Virus record (IMG/VR): IMGVR_UViG_3300027969_000040
DNA from: a virus
Lineage: Duplodnaviria > Caudoviricetes
DNA: 64,000 nt
Direction: 5' to 3' (one strand)
Part shown: in pieces, positions 56,222-59,445 of the stretch
Layout of the letters: the number at the start of each line of letters is the position of its first letter
Position numbering within the stretch: position 1 is the first letter of the stretch
Program-made: the position numbers and the translations under genes
Notes under the pieces: model-generated
The model's database searches: none
What the model was told of the DNA's origin: nothing
What the model saw: the letters and a program-made list of their open reading frames with translations, nothing else

Positions 56222-56496
56222 AGTGGTATATAAATGTTAGACCATTTTTTAAGTTTTACAATCTTGGCTTTTTTTGCAATTTCTAAGTTGTCTATGGATA
56301 TTACACCCAATTCAAGCATGATGTCAATCATTGCGAGCATATCGCCCAATTCTTCTTCGAGATGTTCTCGATTAGTTTTAGGTTTACCCGGTTTTACATT
56401 ATCAGCACCAAATCGATTAATTTTGCTAACTGCTTGAATTACCTCTGCACATTCCTCTTGAAGAATGTCCATTACTTCTTTTTCTCTGGCGTTCAT
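56218..56496 (-). CDS. MazG-like nucleotide pyrophosphohydrolase
   Basis: ILQEECAEVIQAVSK...LEEELGDMLAMI (EExxE / EExxD); ATGA overlaps with queD and queE. Confidence 0.85.
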   Translation of the reverse strand: MNAREKEVMDILQEECAEVIQAVSKINRFGADNVKPGKPKTNREHLEEELGDMLAMIDIMLELGVISIDNLEIAKKAKIVKLKKWSNIYIPL

Positions 56497-56990
56497 TCAA
56501 ATAAATCCTCGTTCCATTCGCGATGACCTTCTCGATAAGCCATATTGGCCTGTGTTTCGCGTACTTCTACGCGATAGCACCATAGACGCTGACTTTCGCT
56601 TTCGCCCCAATAGTCAGGAATATAAACACCGTTTACATACTTGTAAAGCATATCTGCTAAACTTTCACACCCCATGGCTGGCAGGATAGTCAGTTTGGCC
56701 AACTTGCGGCGTTCCATTTCTTTGTAGAACTCAAGTTCTGGATCATCATGTGCCACCAGAGTTGTGTGATCAAATTGGTCTTCTAAGATCTTTTTAAGTT
56801 CTTTCAATCCGCCGTAGTCAGCGACCCAGTTGCGAACGTCTAGATCGTTGGTTCCAAAATAGAACTTCATACTAAACGAGTAACCGTGATTCATATTGCA
56901 ATGACTGTTGGCCCTCCATTGTCTATATGCGCAAGGAAATGCGTCGATATATTCTTTTGTACTAGTGTACTTGTATGCGATTGGGGTCAT
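56493..56990 (-). CDS. queD: 6-carboxy-5,6,7,8-tetrahydropterin synthase
   Basis: C.YRQW..SHC...HGY, DYGGLKELK..LE..FDH, CESLA, VEVRET. Confidence 0.88.
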   Translation of the reverse strand: MTPIAYKYTSTKEYIDAFPCAYRQWRANSHCNMNHGYSFSMKFYFGTNDLDVRNWVADYGGLKELKKILEDQFDHTTLVAHDDPELEFYKEMERRKLAKLTILPAMGCESLADMLYKYVNGVYIPDYWGESESQRLWCYRVEVRETQANMAYREGHREWNEDLFE

Positions 56991-56995
56991 GCTGT

Positions 56996-57062
56996 TTCTC
57001 CTATGTTAATTATAGCATAGGCGGCGGAGTTTGTAAAGCGGGACGATGCCGATAGACCGCTA
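56996..57062 (-). promoter_or_regulatory. Candidate cis-regulatory RNA (riboswitch-like) in the queD 5' UTR
   Basis: GC-rich island in AT-rich DNA: P1 GCGG/CCGC, loop CGGC able to pair with downstream GCCG, and a hairpin CCUAUG/CAUAGG covering the AGG of the RBS. Confidence 0.55.
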
Positions 57063-57074
57063 TATGTACTTATC

Positions 57075-57518
57075 TTATTGTTCGGATACGTTTAGTATTT
57101 GAACTGCTGGTACATCATCTTCGAGAATATTACCATTTTCGTCTACTAGACAAATTCTAATTGGATTGCTAATACGCATATAAGAACTATCAATGCTCCA
57201 TTGATCTACAATTCCATCAATGCCATTTCTTCCCCAATTGATACCAATATTATTTACATCTTCATCAGTAAAGTCACCAAAAAATTTATAAAATGTTTGA
57301 AATTGATTTTTATATACGCCAGTTTCTAAAGGAAAATGCAAATTATCATCATTAATTTCTTGCTGTGTAATTGGATTATCTAAACTTCTGGTTCCGTATC
57401 CAGATACGAATGTATCTGTTACACTCCAACCTCGGTCGTTGTTTACTGACTTGATATTATAATATACACTTATACTACCGTCGTTATTTACTGGATACAC
57501 TCTGTATGAGTTTGTCAT
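57075..57518 (-). CDS. Hypothetical protein
   Basis: 147 aa; AAGG RBS; TAAATA at 57548-57553. Confidence 0.65.
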   Translation of the reverse strand: MTNSYRVYPVNNDGSISVYYNIKSVNNDRGWSVTDTFVSGYGTRSLDNPITQQEINDDNLHFPLETGVYKNQFQTFYKFFGDFTDEDVNNIGINWGRNGIDGIVDQWSIDSSYMRISNPIRICLVDENGNILEDDVPAVQILNVSEQ

Positions 57519-59371: not shown

Positions 59372-59415
59372 TTTATTTTTTCTCCGATGTTAAGGCAGAG
59401 GATTGCCATGTTTGT

Positions 59416-59445
59416 ATTATATATTATTTAGACCAACAGAGTCAA
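59416..59445 (-). promoter_or_regulatory. Nested sigma70 and late promoter upstream of folE
   Basis: TTGACT - 18 nt - TATAAT with TAAATA (59425-59430) inside the spacer. Confidence 0.55.

Follow-up and report, generated by a model that had tools for sequence, protein, structure and literature searches.

A covarying pseudoknot in the queD leader of uncultured freshwater phages as a candidate ON-type RNA switch

The window, a 64,000-nt stretch of DNA from a Caudoviricetes virus (IMG/VR record IMGVR_UViG_3300027969_000040), contains queD at 56493-56990 on the minus strand, the product of which matches the Pfam PTPS family with an E value of 2.9e-15. A MazG-like gene and a radical-SAM, QueE-like gene lie downstream of queD, and folE lies 1.7 kb upstream. 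An upstream minus-strand ORF stops at a TAA codon at 57077-57075, 14 nt from the helix designated P1. The 84-nt spacer between the end of this ORF (57075) and the queD start (56990) holds all elements of the original prediction, which had proposed that a P1 helix, a pseudoknot and a hairpin covering the ribosome-binding site (RBS) precede queD. The positions and sequences that it gave for P1, the hairpin and the RBS are correct, as is its description of a GC-rich island, the core of the leader being 62% G+C within a window of 37% G+C. The queD leader under study comprises 57061-56988 on the minus strand. The features of the spacer, all on the minus strand, are as follows.

57067-57074, minus strand: box GATAAGTA, possible T4-late-like promoter element (TAA[A/G]TA) of putative function, ending 5 nt before P1
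57057-57061, minus strand: P1 5' strand AGCGG, pairing with 57041-57037; changes on both sides among relatives
57051-57056, minus strand: L1 UCUAUC; base 2 (C) and base 3 (U) conserved in alignments, the rest a variable spacer
57047-57050, minus strand: P2b 5' strand GGC(A), pairing with GCC 57022-57020; A57047 is opposite C57023 as a mismatch
57044-57046, minus strand: mismatched U57046 and P2a 5' strand C57045, G57044, from covariation
57042-57043, minus strand: L2 UC; the column of C57042 is invariant in alignments
57037-57041, minus strand: P1 3' strand CCGCU, from pairing and covariation with 57061-57057
57027-57036, minus strand: L3 UUACAAACUC, consensus WWAHAWAYUC, constant length
57024-57026, minus strand: P2a 3' strand C57026, G57025 and mismatch partner C57024, from covariation
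57020-57023, minus strand: P2b 3' strand (C)GCC, the candidate switching sequence; C57021 and C57020 also start the 5' arm of the hairpin
57009-57037, minus strand: probable embedded sigma70-type promoter, TTTACA (57037-57032), 17 bp, TG-n-TATAAT (57017-57009); 11/12 consensus positions plus TG
57000-57021, minus strand: hairpin predicted from sequence to sequester the Shine-Dalgarno (SD) sequence, CCUAUG, loop CUAUAAUUAA, CAUAGG; local MFE -7.2 kcal/mol
57002-56998 and 56990-56988, minus strand: SD AGGAG and AUG start codon of queD, from sequence and the ORF with the PTPS match

Window QueD has CNMNHGY in place of the canonical QueD motif CxxxHGH (PMC10516641), with tyrosine at the second zinc-binding histidine. 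The peptide HCNMNHGY is present also in a distant relative (L048). Because of this tyrosine, the exact reaction of the window QueD-like enzyme may differ from that of a standard CPH4 synthase.

The leader of folE (59372-59445, minus strand) has a good sigma70-type promoter of its own, TTGACT-18-TATAAT. It also has a hairpin, GGCA-AUCCUC-UGCC, containing CUCUGCC, the string that ends L3 plus P2 in queD leaders of relatives. The hairpin is followed by UUAACAUCGGAGAAA, similar to UUAACAUAGGAGAAA of the queD leader. Judged from sequence, the folE leader could be a mini-version of the queD switch, or the two could share a promoter-leader architecture.

The queD leader belongs to a family. IMG/VR holds more than 590 relatives of window QueD, the best 80 of which are 81-96% identical to it. 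Many relatives come from large contigs (190-380 kb), of which some are rated 95-99% complete, and nearly all have the same leader. A 19-nt motif pattern matches more than 120 viral contigs. All 119 readable matches of 120 head a queD operon, the remaining one (L145) being cut by the contig end; specifically, queD is the next gene in 114/120 and lies within 1 kb in the same orientation in 5 more. Five phage contigs of 190-345 kb were searched with a covariance model built from the family, and each has exactly one strong copy. The family was found only before queD operons of uncultured freshwater phages, and DNA of the window occurs in freshwater and lake metagenomes. Among cultured phages, blastn of the region gives no match, QueD proteins are at most 52% identical to window QueD, and the covariance model finds nothing at queD loci, where queD abuts the upstream gene and has no leader.

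Searched against 185,579 prokaryote species genomes, the pattern gives 48 matches, approximately the number that we estimate for chance, and only two are real. Both are in one Haliscomenobacter sp. metagenome-assembled genome (MAG), at L221:4381-4432 (minus strand, with queD; contig of 183 kb) and L246:1262-1311 (plus strand, likewise with queD; contig of 39 kb), and the leader and QueD of L246 are near-identical to those of the window. These contigs either hint at a host in the Bacteroidota (Saprospiraceae) or come from phages and were binned with the MAG. A match in a gut Eubacteriales MAG (L232:4639-4684, plus strand; 31 bits) has AGCGG, an 11-nt loop ending in C, CCGCU and a family-like 13-nt tail, with no obvious P2 and no queD; about one such chance match is estimated among the 48. 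L085 contains a second, degenerate copy (7-55, plus strand; 30 bits), 1 kb upstream of the normal copy and before a methyltransferase-like ORF that precedes queD. P1 of this copy would be ACCAG/CUGGU, and its P2b is poor.

Three further relatives with queD 84-86% identical (L044, L051 and L057) show no motif in the fetched flanks, which cover 0.4-3 kb upstream of queD. In these relatives queD is translationally coupled to, or close behind, another gene, suggesting that the switch was lost or replaced several times. Genes after queD vary between related phages (L012, L015, L020, L021 and L076) and include those for an NAD-dependent epimerase/dehydratase, a class II aldolase, an FAD-dependent oxidoreductase and a methyltransferase; QueE-like genes also occur after queD in the family. 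Such widely differing genes suggest diverse tailoring chemistry around a deazaguanine or pterin core.

Comparison of 137 distinct cores supports by covariation an H-type pseudoknot of 46-54 nt. Its elements follow in the order P1 (5 bp), L1 (3-9 nt), P2b (3-5 bp) with a U/C mismatch and P2a (2 bp), L2 (2-3 nt), the 3' strand of P1 and L3 (exactly 10 nt). The stretch from P1 to the downstream complement is constant in length across the family. Changes on both sides of P1, P2a and P2b are seen in homologous queD leaders, where the original prediction had proposed that covariation be sought. The fold of the single window leader is no better than that of shuffled sequences (MFE -14.4 kcal/mol, z = -0.03), so it is the covariation among homologues that argues against a chance fold. 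The comparative evidence indicates that the pseudoknot is under selection.

P1 pairs (A)GCGG (57061-57057) with CCGC(U) (57041-57037). It thereby extends to 5 bp the GCGG/CCGC helix of the original prediction, which is borne out. In 41 distinct sequences P1 is paired in 100%, with 14 both-sided changes at three of the five pairs and no one-sided change, and in a set of 96 sequences pairing is 99.8%. The both-sided variants are A-U/U-A, G-C/C-G/U-A and C-G/A-U/U-A. Counted over the 137 cores with anchors that carry no complementarity requirement, 683/685 cells are Watson-Crick paired, and the 5' strand occurs as AGCGG, AGUGG, AGAGG, UGCGG, ACCGG or AUCGG, each with its complement. RNAalifold predicts P1 independently.

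P2a is a newly recognized 2-bp helix, in which C-R of the loop sequence U-C-R pairs with Y-G near the end of an apparent 13-nt linker. In the window, its pairs are C57045-G57025 and G57044-C57026. In the C-G pair, which is invariant, the loop C has as its partner the invariant G at L3+2. At the R-Y position, 127 cores have A-U and 10 have G-C, so that 137/137 are consistent; on the QueD tree this pair changes at least five times, always on both sides, and a pair-count tool gives 8 both-sided changes at this pair from a model alignment that misplaces some rows. The mismatch U57046/C57024 between P2a and P2b is conserved in the family.

P2b usually has 4-5 bp across the family, the loop sequence GGCR pairing with YGCC and variants, with many Watson-Crick swaps. 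The compensatory types are GGCA:UGCC, GGCG:CGCC, GGCU:AGCC, GGUG:CACC, GACAC:GUGUC and GGUGU:GCACU. The window P2b is weak, with 3 bp (GGC 57050-57048 with GCC 57022-57020) and an A/C mismatch. All four P2b pairs are present in 72/137 cores, compared with 52.9 +/- 3.6 (maximum 64, 1000 trials) when tails are exchanged between cores, shuffles that ignore kinship. Three other counts of P2b pairing came out much the same. Support for P2b is moderate, and some clades depart from a regular register. MAFFT and covariance-model alignments misplace P2, since L1 and L2 differ in length, and the P2 statistics were taken from anchored scripts instead.

The H-type pseudoknot of the original prediction is supported, but not in its register. 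CGGC (57051-57048) and GCCG (57025-57022) can form a helix, but one that is shifted 2 nt from the family register and would use up bases of P2a. Two other assignments were tried and rejected. A P2 register using AGCAU/AUGCU of the hairpin fits many window-clade leaders and fails in GGCU-type loops and other clades. The reading of YUCY as a free anti-SD sequence was dropped since P2a better accounts for its 3' part.

Unpaired positions of the motif are highly conserved. C57042, directly 5' of the P1 3' strand, is invariant in both alignments and in the 137 cores. In preQ1-I riboswitches the specificity C is just 5' of the P1 3' strand (PMC10622847), and by analogy C57042 is a candidate ligand-pairing base. 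L3 is 10 nt in all variants, with A3, A7, U9 and C10 invariant. Covariation of L3 bases 4 and 6 with the third pair of P1, in few independent events, suggests that L3 makes minor-groove contacts with P1.

The hairpin that the original prediction placed over the RBS is present as described: CCUAUG (57021-57016) pairs with CAUAGG (57005-57000) and buries AGG of the AGGAG SD. Hairpins of the window type number 99 among relatives. About 25 representative leaders from all clades were compared. In these the 4-7 nt after P2a, namely the 3' strand of P2b, can alternatively pair with the SD or the AUG, save in L041, where CUCC at the L3/P2a boundary is the anti-SD. SD-covering helices differ by clade (CCUAUG/CAUAGG, ACUCC/GGAGU and CCUC/GAGG), and the start codon is covered by GCCAUUG/CAAUGGC, UGUCGUC/GAUGGCA or GUCAUA/UAUGGC. 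The SD lies 18-35 nt downstream of the P2 3' strand.

Because the P2b 3' strand is at the same time the anti-SD or anti-AUG strand, the pseudoknot and the sequestering helix are mutually exclusive, so that the pseudoknot should open the initiation region and the logic should be ON. We mimicked pseudoknot formation in partition-function calculations on 167 distinct leaders by barring the pseudoknot strands from other pairing. With these strands engaged, the modelled chance of an unpaired SD increases from 0.26 to 0.67 over the 167 leaders, and modelled SD accessibility rises from 0.25 to 0.79 in the window leader. In clades that sequester the AUG, its modelled accessibility rises from about 0 to 0.36-0.94. 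The modelling points to an ON-type switch. In preQ1-I, preQ1-II and SAM-II riboswitches the SD is part of the pseudoknot, and ON logic is the reverse.

Two kinds of putative promoter precede P1. The box GATAAGTA directly follows the stop codon of the upstream ORF, and TAAATA or TAAGTA ends 4-10 nt before P1 in 74/149 distinct upstream contexts, with a peak at 5-8 nt; GATAAGTA shows no enrichment across the whole window. A near-consensus TTGACA-17-TATAAT is present in 22/149 contexts, its -10 element ending 6-9 nt (mode 7) before P1, so that P1 would form the 5' end of the RNA, an arrangement typical of riboswitch leaders. The region 56970-57234, which includes the leader, is spanned by RNA-library contigs of relatives; as these may derive from DNA, they are weak evidence that the leader is transcribed in relatives. 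A terminator scan lists no intrinsic terminator for the upstream gene, which would have a short loop on a G+C-rich stem of at least 5 bp and then a run of U; the loop of P1 is 15 nt, and only UUU follows.

The window clade has, in addition, a probable extended -10 sigma70 promoter embedded in the motif. TG-n-TAnnnT is kept in 96/99 hairpin loops, while other parts of the loop vary in length and sequence. T1, A2 and T6 are the bases required by a -10 element. The inner -10 element is 17-18 bp from TTTACA or TATACA, and co-occurs with C at L3 position 4, in 93/95 leaders, and leaders without the inner -10 element have T or A instead of this C in 43/49. Transcription from the embedded promoter is predicted to start near 57004-57002, giving a short leader without the switch. 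The original prediction had regarded a start downstream of the motif as evidence against a regulatory RNA. Some short transcripts are indeed possible, but the RNA matters on longer transcripts, as indicated by the covariation and by the upstream promoters of relatives. The RNA reading stands because P2b covaries within the clade and the pseudoknot is kept in clades without the inner promoter. In the window clade, the same bases appear to encode both RNA switch and promoter.

At E<=10, Rfam gives nothing at the leader in the window or in 10 diverse relatives, and the preQ1-I model RF00522 has no match at the leader in three near-complete phage genomes. The Rfam scan that the original prediction proposed thus matches no family, including RF00522, for which membership is set by the Rfam gathering threshold of 39 bits, a score that the leader does not reach. 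Searches of the literature returned no account of any phage RNA in a queD leader.

Among known RNAs, the leader most invites comparison with preQ1-I, which likewise is an H-type pseudoknot that has a P1 of 5 bp and, directly ahead of the second P1 strand, an invariant C (PMC10622847). Both have an A-rich L3 that may lie in the P1 minor groove, and both belong to the leader of a gene in the 7-deazaguanine pathway and control, or would control, its translation. However, the queD leader is 46-54 nt compared with about 34 nt, its P2 is bipartite (2 bp, U/C mismatch, 3-5 bp; 6-7 positions), and its L3 is A-rich (WWAHAWA) yet has YUC as the three bases before P2, with U and C invariant, where preQ1-I has ligand-contacting adenines. 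The pseudoknot of the queD leader excludes the SD and supplies the anti-SD as its P2 3' strand, which predicts ON logic, whereas the SD of preQ1-I, or part of it, is in P2 and forms an OFF switch. The queD-leader family, moreover, is found only in uncultured phages. preQ1-II and preQ1-III form an HLout pseudoknot with an embedded hairpin and a three-way junction pocket (PMC11602147); the queD leader has another topology, without the embedded hairpin, and no Rfam match to either. The THF-II (folE motif) riboswitch is also a small RNA before a gene of the GTP cyclohydrolase/pterin pathway and binds a pterin-type ligand (PMC6800512), but it is a hairpin with an internal loop and no pseudoknot, and neither sequence similarity nor an Rfam match to it is found here.

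ON-type translational riboswitches with the anti-SD in the aptamer include the add adenine riboswitch and guanidine-III. The queD leader resembles these in that a strand of the aptamer would double as the RBS-sequestering strand, folding stabilized by a ligand thereby exposing the RBS, and differs in fold, in sequence and in preceding a gene for a phage DNA-modification enzyme. Phage translational operators, among them the pseudoknot of the T4 gene 32 leader, bind protein, usually the product of the same gene. The T4 gene 32 leader is likewise a phage 5'-leader pseudoknot controlling translation of the next gene; unlike it, the queD leader has no indicated protein partner, and its junction is aptamer-like.

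The queD leader is very probably a functional cis-regulatory RNA. It has features by which riboswitches in general are recognized, namely a covarying structure with conserved junction bases, association with one pathway and a mutually exclusive expression platform. We lean towards a small-molecule riboswitch of ON type, and the explanation that we modestly favour is a cis-acting RNA switch in which a ligand-locked pseudoknot would free the RBS and turn translation ON. By default, the sequestering helix would be formed and queD translation would be low. A small molecule would dock between P1 and P2a and pair with the invariant C57042; docking would lock the pseudoknot, withdraw the anti-SD strand and turn queD translation ON. 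Transcripts starting just 5' of P1 would carry the switch, and in the window clade the embedded extended -10 promoter would give short, unregulated transcripts too. As only queD is constant downstream of the motif, the signal is probably tied to the QueD step. The invariant C at the junction makes a ligand with a guanine- or pterin-like face our best guess, and only a guess. Candidates with a guanine-like 2-amino-4-oxo face are H2NTP (the QueD substrate), other pterins, CPH4, CDG, 7-deazaguanine, preQ0/preQ1 and guanine. The weak P2b of the window copy, its single-sequence fold and the moderate P2b support weigh against this explanation; in addition, a biosynthetic gene is more usually under feedback repression, and the embedded promoter could bypass the switch for part of the queD mRNA of the window clade.

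Four other explanations were weighed. A phage or host protein may stabilize or melt the pseudoknot and so set queD translation, the leader being a protein-bound operator. Conservation and covariation fit a protein site as well as an aptamer, pseudoknot operators are known in phages (the T4 gene 32 leader, with RegA operators comparable), and the genes after queD vary. However, no candidate gene for an RNA-binding protein accompanies the motif consistently, and its strict link to queD is more readily explained by a metabolite of the pathway. Its compact junction, in which two helices and an A-rich strand border an invariant C, also recalls pseudoknot aptamers for small molecules (PMC10622847), and we rate the protein operator as fairly unlikely. 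The leader could instead be a structural or timing device without ligand, imposing a fixed low or kinetic rate on long transcripts, which start near P1 or arise by read-through, while short ones are freely translated; it would separate early from late queD expression or couple queD to termination of the upstream ORF 14 nt before P1. The embedded -10 element is conserved in T1, A2 and T6 (96/99 loops) and co-varies with a better -35 element, TAA[A/G]TA boxes lie 5-8 nt before P1, and the upstream stop is 14 nt from P1, all of which would suit such a device. It appears improbable given that the pseudoknot is retained entire, preceded by a consensus promoter of its own, in clades that lack the embedded one, and that the strict conservation of unpaired junction bases together with exclusive pairing exceeds what a static structure needs.

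A diverged preQ1-I member that binds preQ1 or preQ0 and represses queD is more improbable still. The 5-bp P1, the H-type pseudoknot, the invariant C, the A-rich L3 and the que-pathway gene agree with it, but membership fails because there is no RF00522 match at the leader at E<=10 in the window, 10 diverse relatives and three near-complete phage genomes, P2 is longer and in two segments, and the SD is outside P2 with opposite predicted logic; L3, too, ends in YUC. The explanation hardest to credit is that of a promoter only, in which the fold arises by chance and base conservation reflects the -35 and -10 elements of a sigma70 queD promoter. TTTACA-17-TGcTATAAT does match 11/12 consensus positions, and the single-sequence fold has z = -0.03. 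Covariation contradicts this reading, since both-sided changes in P1, P2a and P2b are inexplicable at the DNA level; clades lacking the -10 element, moreover, keep the pseudoknot.

The original prediction had proposed a new class of phage cis-regulatory RNA, and the family is indeed conserved, covarying, queD-specific and absent from Rfam; the proposal needs amending in that the register differs, P2 is longer and the logic is predicted to be ON. A more specific form, which we put forward tentatively, is a new phage-restricted class of ON riboswitch, which would be the first one known for DNA hypermodification. It would sense a pathway intermediate or guanine-like compound (H2NTP or another pterin, CPH4, CDG, 7-deazaguanine or guanine) through a preQ1-I-like but independently organized pocket, and in one clade it would share its bases with an internal promoter, giving early and late transcripts different regulation.

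Riboswitches have been described as rare in phages (PMC9004378). We found no report of a riboswitch on a 7-deazaguanine DNA-modification gene in the literature, and PMC6884629 and PMC10516641, the main two papers on this pathway, mention none. At about 50 nt the queD leader is short; as an orphan candidate it is abundant, is tied to one gene, covaries well and offers a clear switching mechanism that can be tested. The overlay of RNA switch and promoter on the same bases would be an instructive case of dual coding. Should the leader prove to bind a protein, phage translational operators would gain a new member; should it bind a metabolite, the gain would be a new aptamer fold or ligand and a compact ON switch usable for engineering, and it would follow that phages meter the synthesis of anti-restriction bases by sensing metabolites.
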